Assembly: GCA_041736675.1 (NCBI GenBank)
Contig: JBGSTD010000065.1
Coordinates: 895 to 64,894 of the forward strand
From: Salaquimonas sp.
GTDB taxonomy: Bacteria; Pseudomonadota; Alphaproteobacteria; Rhizobiales; Rhizobiaceae
Reading direction: 5' to 3'
DNA: 64,000 nt
In this document: piece by piece, positions 23,053-58,115 of the stretch
Position numbering within the stretch: the first letter of the stretch is position 1
How the letters are laid out: every line of letters starts with the position of its first letter
Program-made: the position numbers and the translations under genes
The notes under the pieces: model-generated
Told to the model about the DNA's origin: nothing
Database searches by the model: none
The model's input: the letters and a program-made list of their open reading frames with translations, nothing else

Positions 23053-25098
23053 TCAACCCCGGCGGGCACGGCCACCGCGACGGCGCGGGGAGCCATCGTC
23101 AACCTCGCCATCCGCCATCAGTTGTCTTTCAGGCAGTTTAACCTGGGTTGCCAGTTTTGGGAATGGTTCGGCTTTGTTGGGGAGCGCCATTGCATTGACA
23201 AAATGGCGCTGGAAATCCGGTTCAAGAGCCGTTTCGATTTTTTCGATTCTTGTAACTGTAACTTCAATTTCGCGACGATAATCGCGGTTGAGAAGCGCCA
23301 TCTTAGCGCCATAGCCTGCGGCATTGCCCACGGCCTTGACGTGGTCCAGATCGCAGTCGGGAATAAGCCCGAGAACCATCGCATATTTGGGGTCTATGAA
23401 AGTTCCAAAGGCTCCGGCAAAGCTGATGCTGTCAACCTCGGTGATGCCCATCTTGTCCATCAGCAATTTTATGCCTGCATAAAGGGCTGCCTTTGCAAGC
23501 TGGATGGCGCGTACATCGGTTTGGCGGATGATGAGTTCCTGCTGGCCGCGCCAGAGGACATAGGAGAAGGTTCGCCCTTCCTGAATGATCCTGTCGGAAC
23601 GCCCGGACAGTTTACCGTCAATAACGCCGTCTTCGGAAATAATGCCGCAAAGAAACATTTCCGCGACAACCTCGATGATTGCGGAGCCGCAAACCCCTGT
23701 TACGCCAATAGCCGAAACAGAGTCTGCAAACCCTTCCTCGTCTGACCACAGTGTGCTGCCAATAACCCTTACTTTTGGTTCCAGGGTGACGGGGTCTATG
23801 CGGACGCGTTCGATTGCTCCAGGCGCTGCGCGCTGTCCACAGGATATTTCAGCGCCTTCGAAGGCAGGGCCTGTTGGGGAGGATGCTGCCACTACATGGT
23901 TGCGGTTGCCTAGCACTATCTCGGCATTGGTGCCGACGTCCACCACCAGCATCTGCTTGTCCTGGCGGTGCGGTCCCTCGCTCAAGGTTACTGCCGCCGC
24001 ATCCGCACCGACATGGCCGGCAATACAGGGCAGCATATAGACCCTTGCGCCATCATTGGCTATAAGGTCCAGCGATTTGGCAGTGGTGTTGACACGGCCC
24101 GATACGGCCAGCGCAAAGGGAGCGCCGCCCAGTTCAGTCGGGTCAATGCCGAGAAAAAGATGATGCATGATCGGATTGCCTACGAACACCATGTCAAGGA
24201 TATCGTGGCGGTCGACCTTGGTCTCTTCACACACATTGCCAATCAATGTGTTAAGCGCCTCGCGCACGGCAATTGTCATGCCTTCGCGGCCTTCGGGGTT
24301 CATCATCACGTAGGACACGCGGCTCATCAAATCTTCGCCAAAACGGATTTGCGGATTGGATGTGCCGGACGATGCGATGGTGAGGCCTGATAGAAGCGAG
24401 ACGAGATGCAGGGCAATGGTTGTTGACCCTATATCGCAGGCAATGCCATATGCTTCGTTTTTCAGGCCGGGATAGACAGCGATAACTCGCGGGCGCGCAG
24501 CATCTTCATCATGATGGATCGCAACTGTGACCTTCCAGTTACCGGCACGAAGCACTTTCTGGATGGTCGGAAGAATGTCGAAATCGACCTCGATGTTTTT
24601 GCAACCCCAATCAGCTTCGAGGGCATGCATCATCCGGTCAAAGTCGCCGAGCGGCTTGTGCATGTCAGGCTCTTCAACTTCGACATAACACATGTGGATT
24701 GCCGGACGGCGGTCGATATGGCGGCCATCGTCGACCTTGCGAACGACCTGCGCGTTGATCTGCAGGTCCTGCGGAATGTCAATAACAAGATCACCCTCAA
24801 TATAGGATGAGCAGGAAAGACGCCGTCCGCCTTTTAGTTCGCGTTTCTCAGCGTAACGGATTTCCTTGGGGCCAAGGGGCGAGATGTGGTCATTGGAGGA
24901 GGTAATGCCATGCTTGGCAAATTTGCCTTCCTGAACATCACACTGGCAGCGGCCGCATATTCCACGCCCGCCGCAAACCGACTCGACATAGACCCCAAGT
25001 TCGCGCGCCGCATCTATGACGGCCGTGCCTTTTGCAAAGCGGCCACGCTTTCCGGACGGCATGAAGAGGACGAGGGGGTCTTTTGGTTTGTCGAGCAT
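23053..25098 (-). CDS. corrinoid reductive activase (RamA/RACo-like: N-terminal 2Fe-2S ferredoxin domain plus ASKHA/DUF4445 ATPase)
   Basis: 681 aa. The 2Fe-2S motif is CGGRGICGRCQC. The ASKHA segments are GIACDIGSTTIALHL and VVDVGTNAEIVLG. The Arg-rich C-terminus reads SPRRRGGRARRG. Confidence 0.8.
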   Translation of the reverse strand: MLDKPKDPLVLFMPSGKRGRFAKGTAVIDAARELGVYVESVCGGRGICGRCQCDVQEGKFAKHGITSSNDHISPLGPKEIRYAEKRELKGGRRLSCSSYIEGDLVIDIPQDLQINAQVVRKVDDGRHIDRRPAIHMCYVEVEEPDMHKPLGDFDRMMHALEADWGCKNIEVDFDILPTIQKVLRAGNWKVTVAIHHDEDAARPRVIAVYPGLKNEAYGIACDIGSTTIALHLVSLLSGLTIASSGTSNPQIRFGEDLMSRVSYVMMNPEGREGMTIAVREALNTLIGNVCEETKVDRHDILDMVFVGNPIMHHLFLGIDPTELGGAPFALAVSGRVNTTAKSLDLIANDGARVYMLPCIAGHVGADAAAVTLSEGPHRQDKQMLVVDVGTNAEIVLGNRNHVVAASSPTGPAFEGAEISCGQRAAPGAIERVRIDPVTLEPKVRVIGSTLWSDEEGFADSVSAIGVTGVCGSAIIEVVAEMFLCGIISEDGVIDGKLSGRSDRIIQEGRTFSYVLWRGQQELIIRQTDVRAIQLAKAALYAGIKLLMDKMGITEVDSISFAGAFGTFIDPKYAMVLGLIPDCDLDHVKAVGNAAGYGAKMALLNRDYRREIEVTVTRIEKIETALEPDFQRHFVNAMALPNKAEPFPKLATQVKLPERQLMADGEVDDGSPRRRGGRARRG

Positions 25099-25122
25099 TT
25101 TTGCTTTCTTCAGGTTAGCTGA

Positions 25123-26208
25123 TTAACCCCGGGCGCGACCGACACGGCCGCTCGCGGCACGTCGTCCGCGGGCGCCGCCGAGTGCAGCATCAGGGTCACG
25201 GTTGAAGGCGATCCAGGCAGCACCGCCGTCATCCTGGTTAAGCAGGAAGTTTGCCGCGCGAATGGATTCCATCTCCTTGCCCGGGCGGGGTCTTGTCGAG
25301 CCCAGTCCAAACAGTTTGACGAATGTTTCATCGTCCATATCCAGGGGAACCACAATACCTGCCGCTTCAACAGCCGCTCTTTTTTCAGCAATCTTTGATG
25401 CGCCCACAGGCAGGGCAACCGGGTTCATGATTGCGCTTGTCATGCCGGCCGCATAGGCCATCGGCAAAAACGCATTGTTGATGCCGTGACGGTTTGGCAA
25501 TCCGAAAGAGATATTGGATGCGCCGCAGGTTGTGTTGACACCCAGTTCTTCACGAAGACGGCGAACCAGCGTGAACACCTGGTGACCGGCTGTGGCCATG
25601 GCGCCGATTGGCATGACCAGCGGATCAACCACGATGTCATGTGCCGGAATGCCGAAATCGGCGGCACGCTGGACGATCTTCTTGGCAACAGCAAAGCGTA
25701 CTTCAGGATCTTCCGAGATGCCGCTGTCATCATTGGAAATTGCTACAACCGCAACATTGTATTTCTTGATGAGCGGCAGAACGCGTTCGAGGCGCTCTTC
25801 TTCTCCAGTCACGGAGTTGACGAGCGGGCGGCCTTTTGCGGTTCTCAAACCTGCTTCAAGCGCACCGGGAACAGAAGAGTCGATGCATAGCGGACAATCT
25901 GTAACCGCCTGGACAGTCTCAATCAGTTTCGGCATGAGCATGGGCTCGACAAAGTTGTTGTCGGCATAACGTGGATCAGCTGCCATCTTGCCGGAAAATA
26001 CCGCTCCAGAATTGATATCGAGAATGGTGGCACCTGCCTCGACCTGGGCAATCGCATCTGCTTCGACGCGCGAGAAGTCATCACGCTCGAGTTCCTCGTT
26101 CAAAATTTTGCGGCCAGTCGGGTTGATGCGCTCACCGATAACGCAAAAAGGCTGGTCAAAACCGATGATAACTTCTTTGGTTTGGGACGCTACGAGGGTA
26201 TGTGTCAT
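25123..26208 (-). CDS. methyltetrahydrofolate:corrinoid methyltransferase (pterin-binding, MtrH/AcsE/MtgA-like)
   Basis: From ATG 26208 (GGAG SD) the pterin-binding barrel motifs are VIGERINPTGRK, ILDINSG and CGASNISFGLPNR. The Arg/Gly-rich C-terminus reads GGARGRRAASGRVGRARG. Confidence 0.8.
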   Translation of the reverse strand: MTHTLVASQTKEVIIGFDQPFCVIGERINPTGRKILNEELERDDFSRVEADAIAQVEAGATILDINSGAVFSGKMAADPRYADNNFVEPMLMPKLIETVQAVTDCPLCIDSSVPGALEAGLRTAKGRPLVNSVTGEEERLERVLPLIKKYNVAVVAISNDDSGISEDPEVRFAVAKKIVQRAADFGIPAHDIVVDPLVMPIGAMATAGHQVFTLVRRLREELGVNTTCGASNISFGLPNRHGINNAFLPMAYAAGMTSAIMNPVALPVGASKIAEKRAAVEAAGIVVPLDMDDETFVKLFGLGSTRPRPGKEMESIRAANFLLNQDDGGAAWIAFNRDPDAALGGARGRRAASGRVGRARG

Positions 26209-26223
26209 TCTGGTTCTCCAATG

Positions 26224-26243
26224 ATATAAAGAGTTCTTTATAT
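26224..26243. promoter_or_regulatory. 20-bp AT-rich palindrome ATATAAAGAGTTCTTTATAT (candidate operator), copy 1
   Basis: It has 9-bp inverted arms with a 2-nt spacer and lies 15 nt upstream of the methyl-THF methyltransferase ATG. It matches the copy at 34683-34702 at 19 of 20 positions. A tandem CTTTATAT repeat follows. Confidence 0.6.
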
Positions 26244-26276
26244 CTTTATATGATCTGTTACAAGCTTTGATCGCAA

Positions 26277-27359
26277 TCAATGTGTGATCTTGTCGACAAT
26301 CTGCTGCGGGGTTTGTGGTTTTGCATCGCCGCTCTCAATGCGATCCTGGATCATCGCCGCATCCACCGCTGCCTCGCGTTTCCACGGCTTGCGGCCTCTT
26401 AGTACGCCAGATTCTGCAACGATTTCAGCAACATATTCTTCCTGTCGGTAGGCCATGATATGGACGCCGTGAACGCCTTCGATTTCCTTGACCTCGTTCA
26501 TGATGTCGATGCAAAGCTGTTTTCCTTCGGCTTTCTGGTCTTGCGCGCCTTCAAGACGTTCTATGATCGCATCGGGAATATGAATGCCGGGAACATTTGA
26601 GCGGATCCATTTGGCGGTTTTGGCAGAGGCGAGGGGGCCGACACCGCAAAGAATAAAGCACTCCTTGTCGAGGCCGAGATCGCGCACTTTCTTCATGTAC
26701 TCACGGAACATGGGCACATCAAAGCAATATTGGCTTTGAACAAATTGCGCACCGGCGGCGATTTTCTTGGCAAGTCGTTGCGGGCGAAAATCATATGGCG
26801 GCGCAAAAGGGTTGATTGCTGCGCCGAGGAACAGGTGTGGCGGTGTCGTCAGTTTGCGCCCGGAGAGAAACTTTGATTCATCGCGCATGGTGCGGATGGT
26901 TTCTAGAAGCGACATGCAGTCAAGGTCAAATACCGGCTTAGCTCCTGGCTGATCCCCTGCCTGCACGCCATCGCCGGTCAGACACAGGACATTTTGCACG
27001 CCCATGGCTGAGGCGCCCAACACATCGCCCTGAATTGCAATGCGGTTTTTATCGCGGCAGGAAATCTGCAGAATTGGCGCATAGCCCATGCGGGTCAGCA
27101 GGGCGCAAATGCCGGTTGAAGACATATGGCAATTGGCACCTGACGCATCAACAGCATTGATACCGTCCACCCAGCCGTCGAAAATTGCCGCGCGTTCGTA
27201 AACATCGAGCGGGTTGGCGCTGTCAGGCGGGTTGAGTTCGGTTGTTACGGCAAATTCACCACGACGCAACACGCGTTCCAGCCTGCCCCGGGAAGAGTGA
27301 CCGGGCAGAGGGTCTAGCGGAGCACCAGGATCAAGGGGGTTAAGGTCCATCTGGCTCAC
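26277..27359 (-). CDS. metF: methylenetetrahydrofolate reductase (MetF, MetFV type)
   Basis: 360 aa. The MTHFR barrel motifs are FAVTTELNPP, INAVDASGANCHMSS and LCLTGDG. The start overlaps the MetV stop by 4 nt (ATGA). Confidence 0.85.
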   Translation of the reverse strand: MSQMDLNPLDPGAPLDPLPGHSSRGRLERVLRRGEFAVTTELNPPDSANPLDVYERAAIFDGWVDGINAVDASGANCHMSSTGICALLTRMGYAPILQISCRDKNRIAIQGDVLGASAMGVQNVLCLTGDGVQAGDQPGAKPVFDLDCMSLLETIRTMRDESKFLSGRKLTTPPHLFLGAAINPFAPPYDFRPQRLAKKIAAGAQFVQSQYCFDVPMFREYMKKVRDLGLDKECFILCGVGPLASAKTAKWIRSNVPGIHIPDAIIERLEGAQDQKAEGKQLCIDIMNEVKEIEGVHGVHIMAYRQEEYVAEIVAESGVLRGRKPWKREAAVDAAMIQDRIESGDAKPQTPQQIVDKITH

Positions 27360-27952
27360 TGGTTTGTCTCCATGTTTGCAGCTTTGGCAGCTTCACGCGT
27401 CGCTGCTGCCTGCGCTGTTACCCGCAACCAGGAGGAAGTTTCCCGCAAAGACTGATCGACAGGCTTTTGAACGTTGAAAATGGCCGTGTTGTCGCGCATT
27501 TGCTGCGAGCCTTTCCAGGCCTGAACCCAGACACACGGCATATCAGGTTCGACTTCGCAGTTTCCATTGGCGCGCACACCGCCGCAAGGGCCATTGCGAA
27601 GCTGCTTGGGGCAATTCATCGGGCAGGACATGCCGGTGGATGACAGTGCGCACTGGCCGCACATGCGGCAGTCAAACATCAGGCCTTTGACGTGTTTTTC
27701 GAGAAAGGTTACCGGTCCTTCGGCCCTGTGATAGCCCACCATTTTCCAAATTGGGTCAAGCATCAGAAAGGCATCGGCAAACTTCTTGTAGAACCATTCG
27801 AGGAACCTTGAATGACGAACCGACCACAGGCGGATCGAATAGCTGCGCTGGCGGCGGTTTGCGCTGACACCAGCGGGCTTGAATGCCGTTTTGGGTGCAG
27901 CCTTTTTGACCAGCGTCGCCTGGGTCACTTTTGCATTCGGTTCAGAGCTCAT
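27356..27952 (-). CDS. methylenetetrahydrofolate reductase C-terminal domain-containing protein (MetV-like, Cys-rich)
   Basis: The Cys-rich run is CRMCGQCALSSTGMSCPMNCPKQLRNGPCGGVRANGNCEVEPDMPCVW. It is translationally coupled to metF. Confidence 0.75.
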   Translation of the reverse strand: MSSEPNAKVTQATLVKKAAPKTAFKPAGVSANRRQRSYSIRLWSVRHSRFLEWFYKKFADAFLMLDPIWKMVGYHRAEGPVTFLEKHVKGLMFDCRMCGQCALSSTGMSCPMNCPKQLRNGPCGGVRANGNCEVEPDMPCVWVQAWKGSQQMRDNTAIFNVQKPVDQSLRETSSWLRVTAQAAATREAAKAANMETNQ

Positions 27953-27985
27953 CGCTTTTCCAGTTCCAGCGTTGATGCTTGTGCA

Positions 27986-28288
27986 TCAGGTTTCACGGCC
28001 TTCGGTTTTGATCAGAGCAATCAATCGCTCCCTCGTATATTCATTTTCAAGATCGGCAGCGGCTTTCTCGGCTTCCGCTTCGAGGTCATCGCTGACCTCG
28101 ACAGGTTCCGATTTACGCCATTGGGCGAGATACTCGTCTGTTTCGGCGGCACCTGAGCGCATTGCACACATGTCGATTGCCTCAATAAAGCGCAGCGACA
28201 ACTCACGCTTGGCCAGATTGCGCCTGCCTGCCTTGACAGTCAGGGAAGCAGGAATATCCCGCCAGTAAACGATTTGCAGCTGTGCCAT
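27986..28288 (-). CDS. small acidic protein, probably of the 'virulence factor' domain family often annotated next to metF/metV in alphaproteobacteria
   Basis: 100 aa from ATG 28288 (GAGG SD): MAQLQIVYWRDIPASLTVKAGRR...DDLEAEAEKAAADLENEY. The family assignment is from memory only. Confidence 0.4.
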   Translation of the reverse strand: MAQLQIVYWRDIPASLTVKAGRRNLAKRELSLRFIEAIDMCAMRSGAAETDEYLAQWRKSEPVEVSDDLEAEAEKAAADLENEYTRERLIALIKTEGRET

Positions 28289-28414
28289 AAACGACCTCTC
28301 GAATTTCGGCTGACAATGTTGGAAAGCCTTGGTTTTTGCTGCGCCGCTAACGACGCACACAGGAATAAAAACGACTCCGGTTTTTGGTGAAGCAAGACTG
28401 GCAGTCTGATGCCC

Positions 28415-28906
28415 TTATGCGGGGTATTTCAACAGTCCGACACTTTCAAAAGTCATCACCAATTCATTGTCCTGGTTTTTCCCCGATTGGCGGGCAGTCA
28501 ACACATACCAGCCGGGTTTGCTTTGGCTCGCACGGCAACTGATTGTCTCATTGAAATAAGTTATGGTGTCACCGGTAAAAACTGGTTTCAGCCATTTCAA
28601 ATTGGTGAACCCCGGCGATGGGCCAAATTCTGGTATTGGCAGACCCGTTGCAGCGCGTTCTGCCATGGATTTTGCATGATGATCGCGCTGTTTTCGCATC
28701 CATACCGAGACGGTATGCCAGCCGGAAGCTGAAAGCCGCCCGAAGACACTGGCCTTTGCCGCGTTTTCATCCAGATGAAACGGCTGAGGATCAAACGCGC
28801 TGGCAAAACGGATGGTTTCTTCTGCTTCAAAAGTGTGGCAGCCTATTTCTGCTTTTGTGCCGGGCACCATGAAGCAAGGCAGTTGCGGATCAATTGCTGC
28901 GTTCAT
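28415..28906 (-). CDS. MaoC-like (hot-dog fold) dehydratase family protein, copy 2
   Basis: Motif: FASAFDPQPFHLDENAAKASVFGRLSASGWHT. The ATG overlaps the stop of copy 1 (ATGA). Confidence 0.7.
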   Translation of the reverse strand: MNAAIDPQLPCFMVPGTKAEIGCHTFEAEETIRFASAFDPQPFHLDENAAKASVFGRLSASGWHTVSVWMRKQRDHHAKSMAERAATGLPIPEFGPSPGFTNLKWLKPVFTGDTITYFNETISCRASQSKPGWYVLTARQSGKNQDNELVMTFESVGLLKYPA

Positions 28907-29358
28907 GCGGCACCCCTCGTTTTCATCATGCCTGTATTGGTCAGGGTCAAAACCTGATCGCCGTTTTGATTGAAGACATTGCAACGGATATTAAGAAGAC
29001 CCAAACTTGGGCGTGAGGCGGAAAGGCGTGCGCCTTCGACCAATATATGACCGCTAAGGATGTCGCCAGGGCGAACAGGGATCATCCATTTGCATTCGTG
29101 AACGCCAGGAGCACCCTGGGATGACGAATTCAGCAGAAAACTGTCGCACATCATACGCATTGCAATTGAACATGTGTGCCAGCCGGAGGCGCAAAGCCCA
29201 CCCATCACCGAGGCTTTTCCGCCTTCTTCGCTCAAATGAAACGGTGCCGGATCAAACTCTTCAGCAAAAGCGATGATTTCTTCGCTGGTGACCTGGTATG
29301 GGCCAATATCGACTTTTGAACCGGGTTGCAGATCCTCGTAGTAATATTTGATCATCAA
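28903..29358 (-). CDS. MaoC-like (hot-dog fold) dehydratase family protein, copy 1
   Basis: Motif: FAEEFDPAPFHLSEEGGKASVMGGLCASGWHT. 151 aa. Confidence 0.7.
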   Translation of the reverse strand: MMIKYYYEDLQPGSKVDIGPYQVTSEEIIAFAEEFDPAPFHLSEEGGKASVMGGLCASGWHTCSIAMRMMCDSFLLNSSSQGAPGVHECKWMIPVRPGDILSGHILVEGARLSASRPSLGLLNIRCNVFNQNGDQVLTLTNTGMMKTRGAA

Positions 29359-29388
29359 GTACTCGCATGCAAGATTGGTGCTGTAAGA

Positions 29389-30030
29389 TCATAAACGGGC
29401 AAGGGCAGGGGTTAAATCGCCAAAACCTGTATATCTGCGTTCATAGACAAGGCCAAGAAAAGCAGCTGCGGCTTCTGCGTTTTTACTCAGTTCGTCGTCA
29501 TCGGTCTGGGCAAGATACAGCGCTTTGGTATAATTGGAGAAATACATTTCCTTCAGTTCAGGGTGACGGTCTAGACCAAGCGGTTTCACCATGAAGGTTT
29601 CAAAATGGCGCGCAAGGAAATCGGTGATGAAAAAGGTTGTCATATGATCGTCGCCCTCGCCGGCGAATGCCTCGTTACCGACGTAAAATGAAAAGCAGTG
29701 GGGTCCGGCAATCCGCTCTATGCCATATTTAACGCATACCTTGTCGAGGGCGCCGCCTGTACCACAATCTGCGTAGCCGGCAAAAATGTGGGTGAAACCT
29801 TCATCCCGTGCCTGGCAGATGGCTATCTCCATTGCAGGTGCGATTTTTTCCGGATGATGATGATAGTCTGCCGGAAGACATTTCAGATCAATGTGGTCGA
29901 GACCAAGCTGCTCATTGATTGCGAGGATTTCCCTTGCAATCATGCCGCAGGCAATAACGCGGACGGGTTCGCGATCCGAACACTCGTCCGAGGTTGGCAA
30001 TATAGATCCGGGTTTGTTCCTGCTGGTCAA
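29389..30030 (-). CDS. DUF1638 domain-containing protein
   Basis: Sequence: VRVIACGMIAREI...LPADYHHHPEKI...GYADCGTGGALD...GPHCFSFY. From memory, this family is typically found beside corrinoid methyltransferase genes. Confidence 0.6.
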   Translation of the reverse strand: MTSRNKPGSILPTSDECSDREPVRVIACGMIAREILAINEQLGLDHIDLKCLPADYHHHPEKIAPAMEIAICQARDEGFTHIFAGYADCGTGGALDKVCVKYGIERIAGPHCFSFYVGNEAFAGEGDDHMTTFFITDFLARHFETFMVKPLGLDRHPELKEMYFSNYTKALYLAQTDDDELSKNAEAAAAFLGLVYERRYTGFGDLTPALARL

Positions 30031-30102
30031 GATGCTCTCGCAGATAGATTCAATTGCTTGTGAAACTGAATCTGATTATTTCACCAAATAATTGTTTTAC
30101 CA

Positions 30103-30138
30103 AATAAAAAGGGCGCTGATTGGTTCCCCCCAGCGCCC
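30103..30138 (-). terminator. rho-independent terminator after the corrinoid protein gene
   Basis: On the minus strand, GGGCGCTG-(12 nt)-CAGCGCCC is followed by TTTTTATTT, 25 nt after the stop at 30164. Confidence 0.7.
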
Positions 30139-30163
30139 GATTTCAATCCCGTCCACCTGACGC

Positions 30164-30853
30164 TTACATCTGGTTGTGCTTGCGGGCCATATAGGATTTT
30201 GCAGTTTCAACTGCAACCGCAGCATCCCGGCAATAGGCGTCAGCACCGATGGCCTTGCCAAATTCCTCGTTGAGCGGAGCGCCGCCCACAAGGATGGTAT
30301 AGTCATCGCGAATGCCTTTGGCGATCATCGTGTCTATCACAACCTTCATGTATGGCATTGTTGTGGTCAACAAGGCTGACATACCCAGAATGTCGGGTTT
30401 ATGTTTTTCGAGAGCGGCCAGATATTCGTCAGCATCGGTGTTGATGCCAAGGTCGAACACATCAAAACCGGCGCCTTCCATCATCATGCCGACGAGGTTC
30501 TTGCCAATGTCATGAATGTCACCTTTGACGGTGCCGATAACCATTGAGCCCAATTTGGGTGCACCGGTTTCAATCAGCAACGGGCGAAGAATGAACATTC
30601 CTGCTTTCATTGCATTTGCCGCAAGCAAAACTTCGGGAACGAACAAAATGCCGTCACGGAAGTCGATACCGACAATGCGCATGCCTTCAACCAGGGCCTT
30701 GGTCAGAACATCGTAAGGTGTCCATTTCCTGTCGAGCAGGATGTGTACACCTTCTTCGATTTCTTCTTTCAGGCCGTCATAAAGGTCATCATGCATCTGG
30801 AGAACCAGATCCTCATCGCTCAATTCTGACAGGATGATTTCATCTTCTGACAT
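30164..30853 (-). CDS. corrinoid (cobalamin-binding) methyl-carrier protein (MtgC/MtbC-like)
   Basis: It has a B12 cap domain and a Rossmann domain with the DxHxxG motif (GDIHDIGKN). The strongly acidic N-terminus reads MSEDEIILSELSDEDLVLQMHDD. Confidence 0.85.
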   Translation of the reverse strand: MSEDEIILSELSDEDLVLQMHDDLYDGLKEEIEEGVHILLDRKWTPYDVLTKALVEGMRIVGIDFRDGILFVPEVLLAANAMKAGMFILRPLLIETGAPKLGSMVIGTVKGDIHDIGKNLVGMMMEGAGFDVFDLGINTDADEYLAALEKHKPDILGMSALLTTTMPYMKVVIDTMIAKGIRDDYTILVGGAPLNEEFGKAIGADAYCRDAAVAVETAKSYMARKHNQM

Positions 30854-30919
30854 TTATTGCTGCCCTTCTGCAAAACGTGAATGTGTTTCCAATTTAGTTA
30901 TCATTGCCAATACGCAAAT

Positions 30920-30973
30920 CAAACAAATTTTCCCCTTGATATAGCAGGAAACCCCCCATTGATATCTGTTTGT
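30920..30973. promoter_or_regulatory. composite repeat element in the corrinoid/mttB divergent promoter region
   Basis: CAAACAAAT (30920) and its inverted partner ATCTGTTTG (30965-30973) flank two direct CCCC(T/A)TTGATAT repeats. The left part resembles 34757-34783, and the right 15 nt is identical to 42633-42647. Confidence 0.45.
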
Positions 30974-31238
30974 TTAGCGACCTATGGCAAGAGGATTGCG
31001 ACGCGTTGATTTTGGATGCAATGTCGACAAAGAATGTGGTCTATGTAATTCACGCAAAAGCTTGTCGGTTTTGGCAAAGTGAAATTGCAAAACAGATATA
31101 GTTGAAGAGGTAATCGTTCTTGTAGTCTTCGAAATTTGACGGAGTTGTCCGATTTTGGGACGGCACTATCCAATATTTGAAACCAAGATACTGTTATTTC
31201 AGGCGAATTTGAGTTCGTCATGCTAAAAGGTAAGAAAA

Positions 31239-32822
31239 ATGAGCGAGATGGATACCTCCATGAGTGAGAAAGATGCTGGCGAAGAAGGACGCGGCGGACG
31301 CCGTGTCAGAGGCGGCGGTGGTGCTGCCAGACGCGCGTCGCGTTCAGGAGTGCATTTGACAAGCCTGCCTTATATCCACCGACAGTTGGAACCCGTTGAT
31401 ATCCTCTCGTTGGAAGCGATCGAAATTATTGAGCGCAATGCCGATATTCTGATGGAAGAAGTCGGTCTTGAATATCGTGATGATGCCGAGGCGCTGCAGA
31501 TGTGGCGTGATGCCGGTGCGGATGTTCAGGGTGAGCGGGTGCATTTTCCAAAAGGTCTTTGCCGCGAGTTGATGAAAACTGCCCCGTCGAGCTTTACCCA
31601 GCATGCGCGAAATCCTGACAGAAGCGTGGTTATTGGCGGCAAAACAACGGTTTTTGCTCCGGTTTATGGTCCGCCATTTGTACACGACCTCGATGGCAAC
31701 CGCCGGTATGGCACGATGGAGGATTTCCGCAATTTCGTGAAACTTGCCTATATGGCCCCCGCCATGCACCATTCAGGCGGCACGGTTTGCGAGCCAACGG
31801 ATGTTGCGGTCAACAAGCGCCATCTCGACATGGTTTATTCACACATCCGCTATTCAGACAAACCTTTCATGGGTTCAGTCACTGCGCCCGAACGGGCGGA
31901 AGATACTGTCAAAATGGCGCAAATGGTGTTTGGAGAAGAGTTTGTTGACCAGAATTGCGTTCTTGTCTCATTGATCAACTGCAACTCGCCGATGGTGCTT
32001 GATGATACCATGCTTGGTGCATTGAAAGTCTATGCCCGGGCAAACCAGGCGTCCATCATCTCCCCGTTTATCGTTGGCGGTGCCATGAGCCCGGTCACTG
32101 TGGCTGGAACATTGACGCAGGTGCTTTGTGAAGCAACGTCAGCAATCGCGTTTTCGCAGCTATGTCGCAAGGGATCGCCGGTGATTTTCGGCACATTTGC
32201 GACCTCGATTTCCATGCAGACGGGTGCGCCCGCGTTTGGAACACCTGAGCCTGCGCAGGTTTTGATGGGGGCTGCACAGTTTGCCCGCCGATATAACCTG
32301 CCGTTCCGCTCCGGTGGCTCACTTACCGGATCAAAACTGCCGGACGCATCGGCAGCCTATGAAAGCGCCAACACGCTTTGGCCGGCGATGATGGGAGGGG
32401 TGAATTTCATGCTTCACGCTGCCGGATGGCTTGAAGGGGGGCTTGTGTCCTCCTTCGAAAAATTCGTGATGGATTGCGACCAGTTGGCGGCAGCCCAGAA
32501 ATTTGCTGCAGGTGTCAATGTCGATGAAAATGCCCAGGCTATGTCAGCTATCCGCGAAGTCGGACCGGGCGGCCATTATCTTGGATGTGAGCATACCCAG
32601 AACAATTTCAAAACCGCATTCCACGTTTCCACCGTTGCAGACAACAACTCGTTTGAGCAATGGGAAATTGAAGGCGGATTACGCTCGGAGCAGCGGGCAA
32701 ACAAAACTGCACGTGAATGGTTGGAGGCATACGTCGCGCCGGATCTTGACCCTGCAATTGATGAGGCGCTCAAGGCCTTTATCAAGCAGCGCAAGGATTC
32801 CATGCCCGACGCATTTGCCTGA
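31239..32822 (+). CDS. MttB-superfamily (trimethylamine methyltransferase family) protein without pyrrolysine; candidate quaternary-amine:corrinoid methyltransferase 1
   Basis: The 527-aa ORF is uninterrupted, with no in-frame TAG. It has an MttB-like TIM barrel (e.g. NCNSPMVLD, GAMSPVTVAG, HAAGWLEGGL). The Arg/Gly-rich N-terminus reads GRGGRRVRGGGGAARRASRSG. Confidence 0.8.
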   Translation: MSEMDTSMSEKDAGEEGRGGRRVRGGGGAARRASRSGVHLTSLPYIHRQLEPVDILSLEAIEIIERNADILMEEVGLEYRDDAEALQMWRDAGADVQGERVHFPKGLCRELMKTAPSSFTQHARNPDRSVVIGGKTTVFAPVYGPPFVHDLDGNRRYGTMEDFRNFVKLAYMAPAMHHSGGTVCEPTDVAVNKRHLDMVYSHIRYSDKPFMGSVTAPERAEDTVKMAQMVFGEEFVDQNCVLVSLINCNSPMVLDDTMLGALKVYARANQASIISPFIVGGAMSPVTVAGTLTQVLCEATSAIAFSQLCRKGSPVIFGTFATSISMQTGAPAFGTPEPAQVLMGAAQFARRYNLPFRSGGSLTGSKLPDASAAYESANTLWPAMMGGVNFMLHAAGWLEGGLVSSFEKFVMDCDQLAAAQKFAAGVNVDENAQAMSAIREVGPGGHYLGCEHTQNNFKTAFHVSTVADNNSFEQWEIEGGLRSEQRANKTAREWLEAYVAPDLDPAIDEALKAFIKQRKDSMPDAFA

Positions 32823-32966
32823 AAGGGTGCCCCGGTTTCCGAAGCGCAAGCGAGGAAACAAGTCGGGAATCAAATTACGAAAAGTGTCTGGCGGCTTAGC
32901 GAGCCGACCGGGACTTCGTCATGATTTTGTGATGCAAGGCACCTGACTGTCGGTGGGGTAAAGATC

Positions 32967-33635
32967 ATGACTGACTGCACGGATATTGAAAAGAAATTGG
33001 CTCCTGCGCTTGAGGCGCTGGGGCTTTTTTGTTTTGGCTGGTTTGTAATGGCGGATGATCCGTTTGCCGGACGCAGGGCTGTACTTGTCGGCAACCATGC
33101 CCAGGAAGGCAAACACGCGATGTGGGAGGCTTTTAGGAAATCCGCAGAATATTCCGACACAAAACCTGATGCGATGGATCGCTGGACGCAGCGCGTTGTT
33201 GGTGCGGTAGCAAAGGTGCAGGGGGCCACAGCGATTTACCCGTTTGGAAATACACTATGGCCGTTTCAACGTTATGCCAAGTCTGCAACGGGAATGCAGT
33301 CATCGCCTCTCGGCCTGCTGATCCATCCTGAATTTGGACTATGGCAAGCGTACCGGTCCGTGTTGATATTCAACGATTCTTTGGGTTTAAGTATTCCTCA
33401 GGCGTTGAATCATCCTTGTGACACGTGTTTTGAGAAACCTTGCCTAAGTGCTTGTCCTGTAGAGGCTTTTTCAGTTGATGATTTTGCTGTTGAGCAATGT
33501 CGCACGCATCTTGCTTCCGGGGATCAGCCCGCTTGCATGAGCCTGGGATGCCGGGCGCGGGCTGCCTGTCCAGTCGGAATTCCTTATGTTGACGAGCAAA
33601 TCCGGTTTCACATGCGATCGTTCGCGAAGCTTTAG
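32967..33635 (+). CDS. Fe-S cluster protein with QueG/reductive-dehalogenase-like C-terminal ferredoxin motifs
   Basis: Motifs: CDTCFEKPCLSACP and CMSLGCRARAACP. 222 aa. Its 3' end overlaps the convergent homocysteine methyltransferase gene by 4 nt. Confidence 0.5.
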   Translation: MTDCTDIEKKLAPALEALGLFCFGWFVMADDPFAGRRAVLVGNHAQEGKHAMWEAFRKSAEYSDTKPDAMDRWTQRVVGAVAKVQGATAIYPFGNTLWPFQRYAKSATGMQSSPLGLLIHPEFGLWQAYRSVLIFNDSLGLSIPQALNHPCDTCFEKPCLSACPVEAFSVDDFAVEQCRTHLASGDQPACMSLGCRARAACPVGIPYVDEQIRFHMRSFAKL

Positions 33636-34666
33636 CGTTGACGACGGCCTTTGCGTTCGCGTGGGGCCTGGGCATCGTTGGCGGCAGAGGTTGCGTTTTT
33701 TAATGGTCCGATCTTTGCGATGATTTGATCGATGCTAGGACGCTCGATGTTTTCGTCAGAGATATGGTCGTCGATTGCCTTGCGCATATAGACAAGATGG
33801 TCGCAGGAAGTGCCACAACAGCCGCCAATGATTTTTGCACCGGCATCCATTGCCATGATGGTATAATCATACATCAATTCGGGTGTGCCGGTATATTCCA
33901 CCTTGTCGCCCCGAACGACCGGTATGCCGCAGTTTGCCTTTGCAACCACTATTGCTTCAGGATCTTTTTCGGTCATATCGAGAACGGAAGACAGCAAATC
34001 AGAAGCGCCCACGCCGCAGTTTGCACCAACAGCAAAAGGCTTGGCCTGATTGTCTGCGAAGACCGACCAAAGGCTGGAAGGGGCAAGGCCCATCATGGTC
34101 TTTCCGGCCGTATCGAATGAGGCAGTGACAACATAGGGCATATCAAGTTCGATGGCGGCGTTGGCTGCGGCCTCGATTTCGTCCTGGGAAGACATGGTTT
34201 CAATCCAGATGACATCAACGCCGCCGGATTTGAGCCCTTCCATCTGTTCCTTGAAGGCAAATTGCGCTTCTTCCTTGGTCAGCGGTCCAAGAGGCATCAA
34301 AAGCTCGCCTGTGGGGCCAACCGAGCCTGCCACAATCATTTTACGGCCTGACGCATCGGCGACTCTGCGCGCAATCTGCGCGCCTTTTTCATTGAGTTCA
34401 AAAACACGATCCTGAGCATGATGGAGTTTCAGTCTGTGGCGTGTTCCGCCAAATGTGTTGGTCAGAATAATGTCAGACCCGGCATCGACAAAACCCTGGT
34501 GCAGTTGTTCGATGTTTTCCGGCTTGGTATCATTCCAGAATTCCGGAGAATCGCCAGAAGTAAGCCCCATGCCGAACAAGGTCGTGCCCGTCGCACCATC
34601 AGCGAGCAGTATTTTCTTTTCAGCTAACAATTCCGCAAGGGCATTCTGCATTTTCGGTCCGTTCAT
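33632..34666 (-). CDS. homocysteine S-methyltransferase-family protein (betaine-homocysteine methyltransferase-like / MetH Hcy-domain-like)
   Basis: Motifs: LLADGATGT, ILTNTFGG, GANCGVG and GGCCGTSCDH (zinc ligands). The basic C-terminus reads PRERKGRRQR. Confidence 0.8.
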   Translation of the reverse strand: MNGPKMQNALAELLAEKKILLADGATGTTLFGMGLTSGDSPEFWNDTKPENIEQLHQGFVDAGSDIILTNTFGGTRHRLKLHHAQDRVFELNEKGAQIARRVADASGRKMIVAGSVGPTGELLMPLGPLTKEEAQFAFKEQMEGLKSGGVDVIWIETMSSQDEIEAAANAAIELDMPYVVTASFDTAGKTMMGLAPSSLWSVFADNQAKPFAVGANCGVGASDLLSSVLDMTEKDPEAIVVAKANCGIPVVRGDKVEYTGTPELMYDYTIMAMDAGAKIIGGCCGTSCDHLVYMRKAIDDHISDENIERPSIDQIIAKIGPLKNATSAANDAQAPRERKGRRQR

Positions 34667-50480: not shown

Positions 50481-50591
50481 GCCTTCCAGTTGCGGGAATT
50501 TGCTCCCCTGACTTAATTGGTAGGCCAAACCCGGATTGATCGGGCCAACATGCATTTCATTCAAGTTTTACCGCAAAATTCACTTGCCTTT

Positions 50592-51423: not shown

Positions 51424-53910
51424 ATGTCCAATGACGATAGCAAAGCATTTCCAAGCCATGCGAGGGTCGTGATCATTGGTGGTGGCGCGGTTGGAGCTTC
51501 AACGCTGTATCACCTAGCCAAGGCAGGGTTGAAAGACTGCGTATTGTTGGAAAAAAATGAGCTGACAGCTGGCTCGACCTGGCACGCGGCAGGCAATGTG
51601 CCAACTTTTTCGGCCTCCTGGTCGATCATGAACATGCAGCGTTATTCCGCCGAACTTTATCGCAAGCTCGGCGATCTCGTCGATTATCCTATGAACTACC
51701 ATGTGACAGGATCCTTACGTCTGGCGCACTCCACCGAACGTATGCAGGAGTTTGAGCGGGCTGTCGGAATGGGTCGCTATCAGGGCATGGCGATGGAAAT
51801 GTGCGGCGTCAGTGATCTCAAGTCGCGCTACCCTTTTTTGGAGACACATGATCTGAAAGGCGGGCTGTATGATCCTGCTGACGGGGATATTGACCCGGCG
51901 CAATTGACACAGGCACTTGCCAAGGGTGCGCGGGATATGGGTGCAAAAATATTCCGTTTCTGCCCTGCAACCGGACTGCGCAGAGAGGCAGACGAGTGGA
52001 TTGTTGAAACTGTAAAGGGTGATATCCGCTGCGAATATGTGGTCAATGCGGCAGGCTATTATGCGCAAAAGGTTGGCGAGTGGTTCAAGCCTTTTGCCTG
52101 CGAGGGAATGGCCCGTACCCTGCCGATGATGGTAATGAGCCATCAATATTTGTTGACAGATGAAATTCCCGAATTGCAGGCCTGGTCTCAGGAGCAGGGC
52201 AAGAAGCTTCCTCTGCTGCGTGATGTCGACTCTTCCTATTATCTGCGACAGGAAAAATACGGCCTCAATCTCGGTCCATATGAGAACAATTGCAAAGGTC
52301 ACTGGATGAGCCCGGATGATCCGATGCCGGATGACTTTTCATTCCAGCTTTATCCCGATGATTTGGAGCGGATCGAGTGGCACATCGAAGATGCCATGGC
52401 CCGGGTGCCAATTCTTGGTTCAGTGGGTGTCAACAAGGTTATCAACGGGCCGATCCCCTACACGCCGGACGGCAATCCGCTGATTGGTCCGGTTCCTGGG
52501 GTGCCCAACGCTTTTGAAGCCTGTGTTTTCACTTTTGGTATCTGCCAGGCTGGTGGAGCGGGCAAGGTATTGGCGGAATGGATCACAGAAGGCGCGACTG
52601 AGTGGGATATGTGGTCGTGTGATCCGCGTCGGTTCACAGCTTTCTGCGATCAGGACTATTGCAACAAGAAGGGTATGGAAGTTTACGGCAATGAGTATGC
52701 CATGCACTTTCCACATCATGAATGGCCTGCGGCACGCGAAAAGAAGCTTTCTCCGCTGCATGAGACACTCAAGGCAAGTGGTGCGGTTTTTGGAGCCTAT
52801 AATGGCTGGGAGCGCGCAAATTGGTATGCCAGTGAAACGGATGATGTTTCCGAGGAAGCGACCCATACCTGGGGACGAAAAGGGCCGTGGTACGACCGCG
52901 TGCGTGAAGAGTGTCTGGCGGTGCGCGATGAGGCGGGCATACTCGAACTTCCCGGATTTTCGCGGTTTGCAATCAGGGGCGAAAAGGCTGTCGAATGGCT
53001 GGAAACCCTGATTACCGGGTCGGTTCCAAAAGTTGGGCGCATGGGGCTAGGTTATTTTGCCGATGACAAGGGCCGGATTGTTACCGAGATGTCGCTTGCG
53101 CGCATCGAGGAAGAAGGAGTGCTTTGCATCACAGCAGCCACTGCTCAGTGGCATGACAAGGAGTGGCTCACCAGGCATTTGCCTGATGATGGCAGTATCA
53201 CTCTCAAGGATGATACTGACCTTTACACGACGTTCATTGTTTCCGGCCCCCATTCGCGACAGATATTGAAGCAATGTTCTTCAGCCGACCTGACTTTGCC
53301 ATGGCTTTCGCTGCAGCGTGGAACAGTTGACGCTCATGATGTCATGTTCCTGCGCGTGTCTTTCGCAGGCGAACTGGGTTGGGAAATTCACTGCCGCAAT
53401 GCTGTTGCGGGTGAAGTCTATGATGTATTGATGGATGCCGGCCGGAAATACGGACTGAAACCGTTTGGCATGTATGCTCTCAATTCACTGCGCCTTGAAA
53501 AGGGCTACAGAACCTGGAAAGGTGATTTGTCCACTGATTACACCATTCTGCAGGGCGGTCTTGGCCGGTTTGTAAAATGGTCAAAGCCTGATTTCAAGGG
53601 CAAGGCAGCGCTTGAAAAAGAACGTCAGGAAGGGCCAAGAAAGCGCTTTGTAACCCTGGTAGTTGATGCAGGTGAACATGATGCGCCTTATATGTCGACC
53701 TTGTGGTATCGGGGAGATGTTGTAGGTGAAACAACCTCGGGTGGCTGGGGCCACCGGATCGACAAGTCCATCGCGCTTGGCATGGTGCGGACCGATCTTG
53801 CCAGCCCTGGAACAGAGCTTGAAGTTGAGATCTACGGCGAACGGTTTGCAGCAATTGTACAGGAAGACAAGCCATTGTTTGATCCTGAAAACGAAAGGCT
53901 GCGGGCATGA
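51424..53910 (+). CDS. dimethylglycine/sarcosine dehydrogenase-family protein (FAD plus GcvT domains), paralog 2
   Basis: 828 aa. Motifs: RVVIIGGGAVGASTLYHLAK, GSTWHAAGN and the GcvT region VSFAGELGWEIH. Confidence 0.85.
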   Translation: MSNDDSKAFPSHARVVIIGGGAVGASTLYHLAKAGLKDCVLLEKNELTAGSTWHAAGNVPTFSASWSIMNMQRYSAELYRKLGDLVDYPMNYHVTGSLRLAHSTERMQEFERAVGMGRYQGMAMEMCGVSDLKSRYPFLETHDLKGGLYDPADGDIDPAQLTQALAKGARDMGAKIFRFCPATGLRREADEWIVETVKGDIRCEYVVNAAGYYAQKVGEWFKPFACEGMARTLPMMVMSHQYLLTDEIPELQAWSQEQGKKLPLLRDVDSSYYLRQEKYGLNLGPYENNCKGHWMSPDDPMPDDFSFQLYPDDLERIEWHIEDAMARVPILGSVGVNKVINGPIPYTPDGNPLIGPVPGVPNAFEACVFTFGICQAGGAGKVLAEWITEGATEWDMWSCDPRRFTAFCDQDYCNKKGMEVYGNEYAMHFPHHEWPAAREKKLSPLHETLKASGAVFGAYNGWERANWYASETDDVSEEATHTWGRKGPWYDRVREECLAVRDEAGILELPGFSRFAIRGEKAVEWLETLITGSVPKVGRMGLGYFADDKGRIVTEMSLARIEEEGVLCITAATAQWHDKEWLTRHLPDDGSITLKDDTDLYTTFIVSGPHSRQILKQCSSADLTLPWLSLQRGTVDAHDVMFLRVSFAGELGWEIHCRNAVAGEVYDVLMDAGRKYGLKPFGMYALNSLRLEKGYRTWKGDLSTDYTILQGGLGRFVKWSKPDFKGKAALEKERQEGPRKRFVTLVVDAGEHDAPYMSTLWYRGDVVGETTSGGWGHRIDKSIALGMVRTDLASPGTELEVEIYGERFAAIVQEDKPLFDPENERLRA

Positions 53911-54812
53911 GCAGGCAAATCGTTCTTCTCGACGGTGGCATGGGGCAGGAACTGATTCACCGCTCAAAGCAGCCTCCTTCGCCGTTATGGTCTGCGAAGG
54001 TGATGATGGATGAGCCTGAGATAGTGCGCGACGTGCATTGCGAATATATCGAGGCTGGAGCAAAAATCCTTACGCTTAATTCGTATTCGGCAACACCCGA
54101 ACGCCTGGCGCGCGATGCGAGTGAAGCGCTTTTCAAGCCGTTGCAGGCCAAGGCAATCCAAATCGCCAAAGAGGCGATTGGTGGACGTGATGTCAGGATT
54201 GCCGGCTGTTTGCCGCCGCTTTATGGCAGCTATCATCCGGAATTTGCTCCGGAGTTTGACATTTGTCTCGACACATACCGTCGGATTGTCACTGAGCAGA
54301 AAGACCATGTAAATCTGTTTTTGTGTGAAACACTATCCTCCATCAAAGAGGTTAGAGCCGCGGTTCGTGCGGCTGTGGAGAGTGGCAAGCCGGTCTGGTG
54401 CGGAATGTCGGTGAAAGACGAGGACGGAACCCGTCTTCGCTCCGGCGAACGTTTGGCAGAGGCTGCAGCCATAGCAAAAACAGAAGGTGCAAGTGCCGTA
54501 ATAATCAACTGCTCGTGGCCTGAAGCGGTAACCATGGGGCTCGGCGAGTTGGTGTCTTGCGGTCTGCCGTTTGGCGGTTATGCGAACGGATTCACCAAAG
54601 CGGACAATCTGAAAATCGGCACCACAGTTGCGAACCTTGCCGCGCGAACCGACCTCGGTCCTGACGCCTATGCGGCTCATGCGATGAAGTGGATTGATGC
54701 AGGGGCAAGTATCGTTGGCGGCTGCTGCGAAGTAGGGCCGGCTCATATAAAACGCCTTGCAGAAGTTATCAGAGAAAACGGGTTTTCCATTTCGGGAGCA
54801 TTGTATGTCTAG
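53907..54812 (+). CDS. homocysteine S-methyltransferase-family protein (MmuM/BHMT-like), paralog 2
   Basis: Motifs: LLDGGMGQEL, ILTLNSY, IINCSWP and GGCCEVGPAH. It has an ATGA overlap with the upstream gene and no basic tail. Confidence 0.8.
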   Translation: MSRQIVLLDGGMGQELIHRSKQPPSPLWSAKVMMDEPEIVRDVHCEYIEAGAKILTLNSYSATPERLARDASEALFKPLQAKAIQIAKEAIGGRDVRIAGCLPPLYGSYHPEFAPEFDICLDTYRRIVTEQKDHVNLFLCETLSSIKEVRAAVRAAVESGKPVWCGMSVKDEDGTRLRSGERLAEAAAIAKTEGASAVIINCSWPEAVTMGLGELVSCGLPFGGYANGFTKADNLKIGTTVANLAARTDLGPDAYAAHAMKWIDAGASIVGGCCEVGPAHIKRLAEVIRENGFSISGALYV

Positions 54813-57279: not shown

Positions 57280-58115
57280 CGCTGGCCGACAGACACAAGC
57301 AGTTTTGGCAACTCCATCAGTCCGGCACCTTCGTCATTCCCAATCCGTGGGACAGAGGCTCGGCACGCATGATGGCGGCACTTGGGGCCAAGGCACTGGC
57401 AACGACAAGCGCTGGATTTGCCTTCACGCTGGGACGTCCTGATATGGGAACCACAACGCGCGAGGAAAACATTGCCCATGCAGAGGCAATCATTTCAGCT
57501 ACCGATCTTCCTGTCAGCGGAGACTTTGAAAACGGATTTGCCGATGATCCTGATGGAGTGGCTGAAACCATTCGTCTTGCAGGGGAGGTTGGGCTTTCAG
57601 GGTGTTCCATCGAAGACACGCAAATGGTTGAGGGCAATCCAGCCTATGGGTTCGAACTTGCAGTTGATCGGATCAAGGCTGGCGTCGACGCAGCGCGCTC
57701 GCTCAACCGTCCATTTGTCCTTTGCGCAAGAGCAGATGGCGTGATGAATGGGGCATATAAAGTAGATGAGGCGATACGGCGCATTCAGGCTTTTGAAGCT
57801 GCCGGGGCTGATCTGCTTTATGTCCCGGTGCCGCCCGGTATCGAAGATCTCAAGAGGATCATTTCATCGGTTTCCAAACCGGTCAATGCTCTGGCAGCCG
57901 GAAAAGTTCGCTCGCTCAGTGTTTCTGAACTGGCGGACCTCGGTGTGCGTCGGATATCGCTTGGCTCACAGATTGCCCGCCTGACACATCGCGCCATTCG
58001 GGATGTGACCATGGAAATGCTCAATGAAGGCAAATTTACAAAACTCGAATATGCGATGTCCGGGGATGAAGTTGACCGACTTCTCCTTTCAGGATCCAAG
58101 GGAGAAAAAGCATGA
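57276..58115 (+). CDS. isocitrate lyase/PEP mutase-superfamily protein (PrpB/oxaloacetate decarboxylase-like)
   Basis: 279 aa. Motifs: PNPWDRGSARMMAALGAKALATTSAGFA, GDFENGF and GCSIED. It has ATGA overlaps on both sides. Confidence 0.7.
   Translation: MTLADRHKQFWQLHQSGTFVIPNPWDRGSARMMAALGAKALATTSAGFAFTLGRPDMGTTTREENIAHAEAIISATDLPVSGDFENGFADDPDGVAETIRLAGEVGLSGCSIEDTQMVEGNPAYGFELAVDRIKAGVDAARSLNRPFVLCARADGVMNGAYKVDEAIRRIQAFEAAGADLLYVPVPPGIEDLKRIISSVSKPVNALAAGKVRSLSVSELADLGVRRISLGSQIARLTHRAIRDVTMEMLNEGKFTKLEYAMSGDEVDRLLLSGSKGEKA

Follow-up and report, generated by a model that had tools for sequence, protein, structure and literature searches.

How do the separately encoded modules of a corrinoid-dependent methionine synthase find the one carrier that they share? 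This question is raised by a 64,000-nucleotide stretch of Salaquimonas sp. DNA (GenBank assembly GCA_041736675.1, contig JBGSTD010000065.1, positions 895 to 64,894; hereafter, the window), which encodes the corrinoid protein MtgC together with four families of predicted clients: two MttB-superfamily methyltransferases (MttB-1 and MttB-2), the methyl-tetrahydrofolate (THF) methyltransferase MtgD, the homocysteine (Hcy) methyltransferase MtgE and the reductive activase RamA. In this system, MtgC would carry methyl groups from one client to another: quaternary-amine methyltransferases of the MttB/MtgB type would load a methyl group onto MtgC, MtgD would exchange it with tetrahydrofolate, MtgE would hand it to homocysteine to form methionine, and RamA would re-reduce the inactive Co(II) form. 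We found that each client in the window carries a short arginine/glycine-rich segment at or near one terminus, hereafter the tail, and that MtgC opens with an acidic region, hereafter the handle. Tails and handle are conserved, specific, portable between unrelated folds and distributed together across genomes. Our results suggest that the tails serve as docking or tethering peptides, polybasic and portable, that bind the acidic N-terminal region of MtgC. To this reading, which covers both the binding and its kinetic effect and builds on co-distribution and charge complementarity, we give a little better than an even chance.

The tails lie at the C-terminus of RamA (SPRRRGGRARRG, six arginines in 12 residues), MtgD (GGARGRRAASGRVGRARG, six in 18) and MtgE (PRERKGRRQR), and close to the N-terminus of MttB-1 (GRGGRRVRGGGGAARRASRSG, residues 17-37, seven in 21) and MttB-2 (VRGRAARSGGRAGRHAVRA). 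A preliminary description of this DNA had quoted these sequences with their coordinates, and all of them were verified in the window. When the set of about 55 non-overlapping open reading frames (ORFs) was scored for a terminal 15-residue stretch with at least five arginines, 5/5 corrinoid partners passed, compared with 2/50 other ORFs (Fisher exact p = 6e-6). The two non-partners are the tail of an EamA membrane protein and a structured N-terminal segment of the methylene-THF reductase MetF2, whose arginine-rich stretch (SSRGRLERVLRRGEFAVT) belongs to the fold and does not vary among orthologs. In a charge-hydropathy plot, the tails fall in the disordered region.

Orthologs were sampled from 165 related loci (2.35 Mb) of Alpha-, Beta- and Gammaproteobacteria. 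A first lineage is represented by 80 loci from species-representative genomes scanned with MtgC (Rhizobiales, Rhodobacterales, Geminicoccaceae and others), and a second by 80 soil-metagenome loci, which resemble a Steroidobacteraceae metagenome-assembled genome (MAG) and whose MtgC is 71-79% identical to that of the window. Counts for RamA, MtgD and MtgE were restricted to complete C-termini. An arginine-rich end was found in 42/42 RamA (GGRRRRRSRE, PRRRSREERAARRGRD or RRRGGRRxRG) and 47/47 MtgD (GGRRRGGREARMARG or GGRRGGRAARAG) of the first lineage, and a P[KR]RERRGRRG-like end in 55/55 MtgE. In MtgD, the motif sits behind a variable Ala/Pro/Gly linker and catalytic domains that are ~55% identical; for the clients generally, the catalytic domains behind the conserved motifs are 50-60% identical. 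MttB orthologs of this lineage open with GGRRxRG..GAAARRA[AS]RSGGG and divergent paralogs with RRGGREARRALRS, and the 8-mer RRGGREAR is common to MttB N-termini and MtgD C-termini. In the second lineage, all complete proteins are again tailed: 27/27 RamA (ETRGRRPRR), 35/35 MtgD (PRGRREGGHRRRPA) and 7/7 MtgE (GRRTTNRRGARA), while MttB starts with ARRPSGRDAKRAARTARA or GRRSRRRP. These motifs are unlike those of the first lineage, yet mutually consistent. The same pattern was present in Azoarcus (Betaproteobacteria), on Paracoccus plasmids and in the Steroidobacteraceae MAG (Gammaproteobacteria). Altogether, the N-terminal motif occurs in 110/111 full-length MttB paralogs; the lone exception (L169, 8369-9898, from the Steroidobacteraceae MAG) is a divergent protein that lacks Pfam profile positions 1-28 and ends in AAREGRRARGRRG.

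Depending on the lineage, the polybasic motif thus reads RR(R)GGR[E/A]AR, RGRR..RRR or RERRGRR, in each case at a flexible terminus of four non-homologous client families. The GGRA(R/G)R-like core proposed in the preliminary description is loose within the window, but it sharpens into RR(R)GGR[E/A]AR across orthologs. Synonymous variation affects nearly every motif codon, for example in MtgD, with the Arg, Gly and Ala positions conserved, which indicates selection at the protein level. Moreover, since the motif can stand at either end of a protein and is found on four unrelated folds, it behaves like a modular short linear motif rather than like a part of any one fold or a position-dependent signal peptide.

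This conservation bears on the possibility that the tails are disordered ends without a function, or an artefact of composition or annotation produced by GC-rich DNA, wrong starts or read-through. Tail-coding DNA is indeed GC-rich (61-82%, compared with ~52% for the window), and high-GC genomes yield abundant arginine-rich spurious ORFs. However, the tails are confined to the clients in a window of 52% GC, their motifs persist through synonymous substitutions across classes of Proteobacteria, and the corrinoid system of Gemmatirosa, at 72% GC, is tail-less. Genuine stop codons directly follow the C-terminal tails, and the MttB N-terminus is part of the PDB 4YYC construct. A DNA repeat common to the tail-coding segments was also sought and none was found, the longest local match being 9 nt. 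A repeat origin was accordingly rejected, and the tails are not a mobile DNA element. The artefact explanation is largely refuted, and we consider it very improbable.

The tails are likewise specific to the clients. A strict regular expression for the motif matched 43 MtgD and 4 MttB proteins, compared with 4/8726 unannotated six-frame ORFs, and clustering of ORFs with arginine-rich, hydrophobic-poor C-termini over the 165 loci returned RamA, MtgD and MtgE as the only genuine families. In control families, arginine-rich termini were found in 0/112 PF13769 proteins, 2/81 MetF2 and 2/170 MtgC, and the few matches in DUF1638 and MetV are structured segments of mixed charge. The second homocysteine methyltransferase of the window (Hcy2) is tail-less, as first described, and so are its homologs (0/5). 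Hence, the window ORFs, the regular expression, the clustering and the family controls all indicate that the tails are not spread equally over unrelated proteins. Motif regular expressions and family clustering replaced a genome-wide greedy count of arginine-rich termini; greedy gene calling was unreliable in high-GC loci, where spurious antisense ORFs displaced real genes and 38/80 MtgC were recovered. When other families bearing an N-terminal motif were sought de novo, only MttB stood out, the stop-to-stop ORFs used being noisy with arginine-rich translated upstream DNA. The motif therefore has the properties of a short linear motif, in that it occupies a disordered terminus irrespective of position, occurs on four client families and is essentially absent from non-clients.

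Two other kinds of terminal signal were considered. The tails recall RGG/RG-rich motifs in their arginine/glycine-rich low complexity, and twin-arginine translocation (Tat) signal peptides in the paired arginines near the MttB N-terminus, but these are resemblances only. A Tat signal was ruled out, since the hydrophobic h-region and the AxA site are missing, and the motif occurs at either terminus of cytoplasmic enzymes, with three families and one MttB paralog bearing it at the C-terminus. An encapsulation peptide was considered as well and rejected.

The proposed counterpart of the tails is found on MtgC, which opens with MSEDEIILSELSDEDLVLQMHDD, containing nine acidic residues and no lysine or arginine. 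The net charge of the protein is -18, of which residues 1-35 contribute -13 and the remaining body only -5. Over these 35 residues the first lineage has MSDDEIILSELSDEELVQQMHDDLYDGLKEEIEEG and the second has MSEPTEGEFDLGSLNDEELTEQVHDDLYNGLKTEVEEA, with almost no variation inside either (80 + 80 loci). Compared with the window protein, both the corrinoid proteins of anaerobes and the NCBIfam MtgC models start only around residue 14-23. In MtgC, an acidic extension at the N-terminus and a highly acidic first cap helix have been acquired, which an AlphaFold2 model of moderate confidence (predicted local distance difference test score 74.5) places at residues 1-12 and 13-25, respectively. Over Rhizobiales, Rhodobacterales and Geminicoccaceae, MtgC is 81-89% identical, whereas MtgD, MtgE and DUF1638 of the same loci reach ~50-60%. 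A conservation so far above that of the clients is expected of a hub with multiple partners. The client bodies are themselves acidic, with net charges of -17 to -19 for RamA, MttB and MtgE and -4 for MtgD, and the tails are positive.

Tails and handle are also absent together. In Gemmatirosa, the corrinoid protein is 49% identical to MtgC and handle-less, and its URO-D, RamA and Hcy methyltransferase neighbours are all tail-less. In Acetoanaerobium, the corrinoid protein lacks the extension and its partners lack tails, and a further URO-D system (L171) is both handle-less and tail-less. Neither element is present in the solved proteins compared, namely Desulfitobacterium hafniense MtgB (2QNE, 9YCE), Methanosarcina barkeri MttB/MttC, RACo (3ZYY) and the MeTr proteins of Moorella and Carboxydothermus. 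The corrinoid domain fused within CmuA lacks the acidic helix 1; this comparison with CmuAB rests on CmuA, as CmuB of Methylorubrum CM4 lies outside the stretch examined. A deep intermediate lineage (L084/L085) combines a weaker handle (MSSDIVLNDLTNDDLLALMAEDVYDG) with a weaker RamA tail (RPRERRTR). The check named in the preliminary description, whether tails and acidic MtgC N-terminus co-occur, thus comes out positive for presence and for absence, but the co-occurrence largely reflects one evolutionary origin.

The same comparison informs a second alternative, in which the tails bind another common polyanion, such as DUF1638, PF13769, RNA, polyphosphate or anionic lipids near a betaine transporter, and form a metabolon or condensate that leaves the MtgC N-terminus untouched. 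Disordered tails rich in arginine and glycine are generic polyanion binders, DUF1638 is acidic (net charge -12), and both DUF1638 and PF13769 are conserved members of the cluster, with betaine transporters often adjacent. However, these two proteins occur irrespective of tails or handle: PF13769 is found in Gemmatirosa beside tail-less partners, and DUF1638 accompanies a handle-less protein in Bryobacterales (L170). Neither protein follows the tails in its distribution; what does follow them is the handle. Furthermore, hydrophobic residues of the kind that membrane anchors usually have are missing from the tails, and tails occur on the direct clients of MtgC but not on MetF2 or MetV, which belong to that pathway as well. 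We regard binding to another polyanion as unlikely.

Docking on MtgC would work as follows. The basic tail of a client would bind the acidic handle as a non-covalent tether, standing in for the inter-module linkers of MetH, and such tethers would raise the encounter rate of acidic proteins that otherwise repel each other. Clients would compete for a single site on MtgC, so that their relative abundance would set the flow of methyl groups between catabolism and methionine synthesis. Such competition would fit a proposal, drawn from expression ratios, that MtgBCD and MtgECD complexes compete (bioRxiv 10.64898/2025.12.19.695462, December 2025). More tentatively, and with slightly less than even confidence, we propose that the client tag (RRGGR[E/A]AR-like) and the MtgC hub handle may constitute a recognition code that decides which enzymes gain access to a shared B12 carrier in aerobic Proteobacteria. 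Fuzzy, competitive and non-covalent, this code would take the place of the MetH linkers, and competition among clients would partition methyl flux between catabolic use and methionine formation.

The electrostatic docking function proposed at the outset is thus favoured by conservation, specificity and co-occurrence, the binding itself being what we infer, and several observations weigh against it. The tails had been assigned to every partner of the corrinoid protein, which holds for the five clients but not for DUF1638, a genetically required component without a tail. The N-terminal motif of MttB is bipartite, very conserved and covered both by the Pfam MTTB profile and by the construct of PDB 4YYC, a Sinorhizobium-type MttB ortholog with the segment GGGRRARGEGRGAAARRASRTGGG. 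This motif could serve some other structural purpose, either besides docking or instead of it, such as the oligomerisation mediated by N-terminal strands in M. barkeri MttB. The tails could also loop back onto the acidic body of the enzyme that carries them. The free extension of MtgC spans only about residues 1-12 in a moderate model, and the state with handle and tails probably arose once, in one proteobacterial MtgC clade, which leaves few independent events.

Some of these points are shared by a third explanation, according to which the tails act within each enzyme, in autoinhibition, oligomerisation, charge balance or solubility, and were acquired independently. The strongly acidic bodies of RamA, MttB and MtgE agree with it, as do the oligomer contacts made by N-terminal segments and strands of M. 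barkeri MttB (PMC9842639), and a role of this kind is most plausible for the bipartite MttB motif, given its place in the Pfam profile. Independent acquisition is, however, difficult to reconcile with near-identical motifs on four unrelated folds within one lineage, or with motifs that shift together, from RRRGGR in Rhizobiales and Rhodobacterales to RGRR..RRR in the soil/Gammaproteobacteria lineage. The body of MtgD is nearly neutral and yet bears the strongest motif, the homologous acidic enzymes of handle-less systems are tail-less, and so is the Hcy2 paralog of the same genome. An action confined to each enzyme thus appears quite improbable for the tails as a whole.

Docking through the handle would have parallels in other carrier systems. 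Acyl carrier proteins (ACPs), through helix II, and the docking domains of polyketide synthases (PKSs) and nonribosomal peptide synthetases (NRPSs) exemplify small acidic carriers or short docking elements that are recognized electrostatically by many enzymes. Like MtgC, an ACP is an acidic shuttle that serves enzymes in turn through charge complementarity, and PKS/NRPS systems also use short terminal docking elements. However, ACP clients present basic patches on folded surfaces rather than a common terminal peptide, and a PKS docking domain is specific to its pair; here, by contrast, all clients share a single class of motif. MetH carries out the same chemistry with homologous Hcy, pterin, cap and B12 modules, but these are covalently joined and include an S-adenosylmethionine-binding reactivation domain; in the window the modules are separate proteins, reactivation would fall to RamA, and the pair of basic tail and acidic handle is proposed in place of the MetH linkers. 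Among methanogen complexes, an extra N-terminal domain of MtaC stabilises MtaB-MtaC, and cap-domain contacts stabilise MttB-MttC (PDB 2I2X and 7XCN; PMC9842639). These contacts of the N-terminal region or cap set a precedent for corrinoid-protein elements that mediate partner binding. Unlike the arrangement proposed here, they belong to dedicated one-partner complexes with folded interfaces, and MttC, MttB and D. hafniense MtgB have neither an acidic extension nor arginine tails.

The locus is the published MtgBCDE, or split-MetH, system plus RamA and DUF1638. The window holds all of its sequence-level marks: a corrinoid protein, MtgD with a metF paralog, MtgE, PF06253 MttB proteins, and RamA with DUF1638. 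A classical single-polypeptide MetH was ruled out, as the modules are separate ORFs and PF02965 was unmatched in the cluster proteins. A three-part methionine synthase was shown genetically in Phaeobacter inhibens (Price et al., 2018; PMC5764234), where the homocysteine-binding module is PGA1_c13370, a homolog of Sinorhizobium meliloti 'Bhmt', and DUF1638 was genetically tied to B12 reactivation, and genetic evidence in Ruegeria pomeroyi established MtgBCDE as a glycine-betaine demethylase and methionine synthase (Mausz et al., 2025; PMC12478193). The requirement for methionine synthesis and betaine catabolism is demonstrated in these papers for the R. pomeroyi and P. inhibens orthologs only. 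Both systems have the same genes as the window (MtgC, an MttB-family MtgB, MtgD with MetF2, MtgE, a RamA-like activase and DUF1638), and Rhodobacterales orthologs in the loci examined bear the same tails. Hence, the split MetH-like methionine synthase of the preliminary description was correctly recognized, but it was already known.

The tails and handle are a new feature of this known system. The 2018 and 2025 papers and the December 2025 bioRxiv follow-up are silent on how the modules meet. None of these three mentions tails at the termini, an acidic N-terminus of MtgC, docking or modelling with AlphaFold, nor does a 2026 paper on the MtgB active site or the MttB-MttC structure paper, and broader literature searches returned nothing relevant. 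Tails and docking reading therefore appear unreported in the literature searched. MtgBCDE has been proposed as a major route of glycine-betaine demethylation in the ocean and is the sole methionine synthase of many roseobacters. If our interpretation is true, the tag/handle pair would provide a concrete mechanism by which clients find the carrier and divide methyl flux between a catabolic and a methionine-forming branch. It would also offer a sequence signature for cataloguing MtgC clients, among them the MttB paralogs, of which one genome can have as many as seven, predict new corrinoid-dependent enzymes genome-wide and serve as a basis for engineering synthetic clients. In addition, the system would be a natural example of a MetH-like multidomain enzyme run as a non-covalent, exchangeable assembly.

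Table 1. Genes of the methyl-transfer system and its surroundings in the window, with the segments encoding tails and handle.
Feature	Position	Strand	Description
RamA	23053..25098	-	RamA/RACo-type ATP-dependent corrinoid reductive activase; Pfam Fer2, RACo_linker, Raco_middle, RACo_C_ter; NCBIfam AcsV/RamA models
RamA C-terminal tail	23053-23091		stop codon included
MtgD	25123..26280	-	pterin-binding methyl-THF:corrinoid methyltransferase; Pfam Pterin_bind; NCBIfam NF005719, 389 bits
MtgD C-terminal tail	25123-25179		stop codon included
MetF2	26277..27359	-	methylene-THF reductase; Pfam MTHFR; pathway member without tail
MetV-like protein	27356..27952	-	MTHFR C-terminal-domain protein (DUF5981); without Arg/Gly tail
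PF13769 protein	27986..28360	-	small 'Virulence_fact' protein; cluster-conserved, without tail
Two MaoC-like dehydratase ORFs	28415-29358	-	overlapping; between the PF13769 and DUF1638 genes
DUF1638 protein	29389..30030	-	without tail
MtgC	30164..30853	-	corrinoid carrier; PF02607 cap, residues 20-89; PF02310, residues 103-210
MtgC acidic handle	30749-30853		residues 1-35
MttB-1	31239..32822	+	MttB-superfamily (MtgB-like) quaternary-amine:corrinoid methyltransferase; Pfam MTTB, 752 bits, profile from residue 24; PDB 4YYC ortholog
MttB-1 N-terminal motif	31287-31349		residues 17-37
Cys-rich ORF	32967-33635	+	222 amino acids (…CDTCFEKPCLSACP…C…C…C…CP…); between MttB-1 and MtgE
MtgE	33632..34666	-	MetH-type homocysteine-binding methyltransferase, S. 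meliloti 'Bhmt' family; Pfam S-methyl_trans; NCBIfam NF005718, 504 bits (cut-off 338)
MtgE C-terminal tail	33632-33664		stop codon included
Hcy2	53907..54812	+	second homocysteine S-methyltransferase (MmuM/PRK09485-like); tail-less
MttB-2	58112..59665	+	MttB-superfamily paralog; PF06253, 351 bits; separate cluster without its own corrinoid protein
MttB-2 N-terminal motif	58127-58183		

The individual proteins agree with these assignments (Table 1). RamA combines a 2Fe-2S domain with ASKHA domains, MtgC contains the DxHxxG motif as GDIHDIGKN and has its closest relatives in Salaquimonas and Phyllobacteriaceae, and the best PDB relatives of MtgE are MetH Hcy domains (5e-44), with true BHMT far behind (1e-11). 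The MtgD and MetF2 genes are adjacent on the same strand, with MetF2-MetV upstream of MtgD in the operon, and the three genes adjoin in those related loci that have them. The mechanically called MtgD ORF has a TTG start, encodes 385 amino acids and overlaps MetF2; the true start is probably an internal ATG at ~26208 (MTHTLVAS..., ~361 amino acids), in line with ortholog N-termini such as MTRTIVAS… and MTDTIISS…. This revision does not affect the C-terminal tail.

MttB-2 belongs to a second cluster for methyl-group catabolism (49236-59665), which also encodes a solute-binding protein, a helix-turn-helix-cupin regulator, a phosphoenolpyruvate-mutase-family protein, two DMGDH-like dehydrogenases with flavin adenine dinucleotide and GcvT domains, and Hcy2. 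The two PF06253 paralogs, of the non-Pyl MttB superfamily, would be methyl donor-specific methyltransferases, and MttB-2 presumably uses the MtgC encoded 27 kb away.

The Cys-rich ORF beside MttB-1 matched zero Pfam or NCBIfam families, and it is retained next to the system in ~51/80 loci. An Fe-S protein is one possibility, with electron donation to RamA as a candidate role. PF13769 is not named among the components in the examined passages of the MtgBCDE and split-MetH papers (PMC12478193; PMC5764234). In Gemmatirosa-type systems, the corrinoid protein has a PF13769 domain fused on at its C-terminal end (L081, 19983-20954, and P0207; a weak Pfam match of 22.9 bits), which suggests that the PF13769 protein works physically with MtgC.

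Handle-less MtgC paralogs of the P0228/P0392 family were uninformative as a negative control, as their neighbourhoods do not contain the methyltransferase partners, and partner genes were not found in the contexts of P0349 and P0280. On Steroidobacteraceae-like contigs (L167/L168, 10001-11054), the P0228/P0392 gene adjoins those for a small 2Fe-2S ferredoxin and a major facilitator superfamily transporter. Finally, the handle-less homolog P0154, 57% identical to MtgC, has a long N-terminal extension like a signal or transit peptide and may be of eukaryotic (algal) origin.

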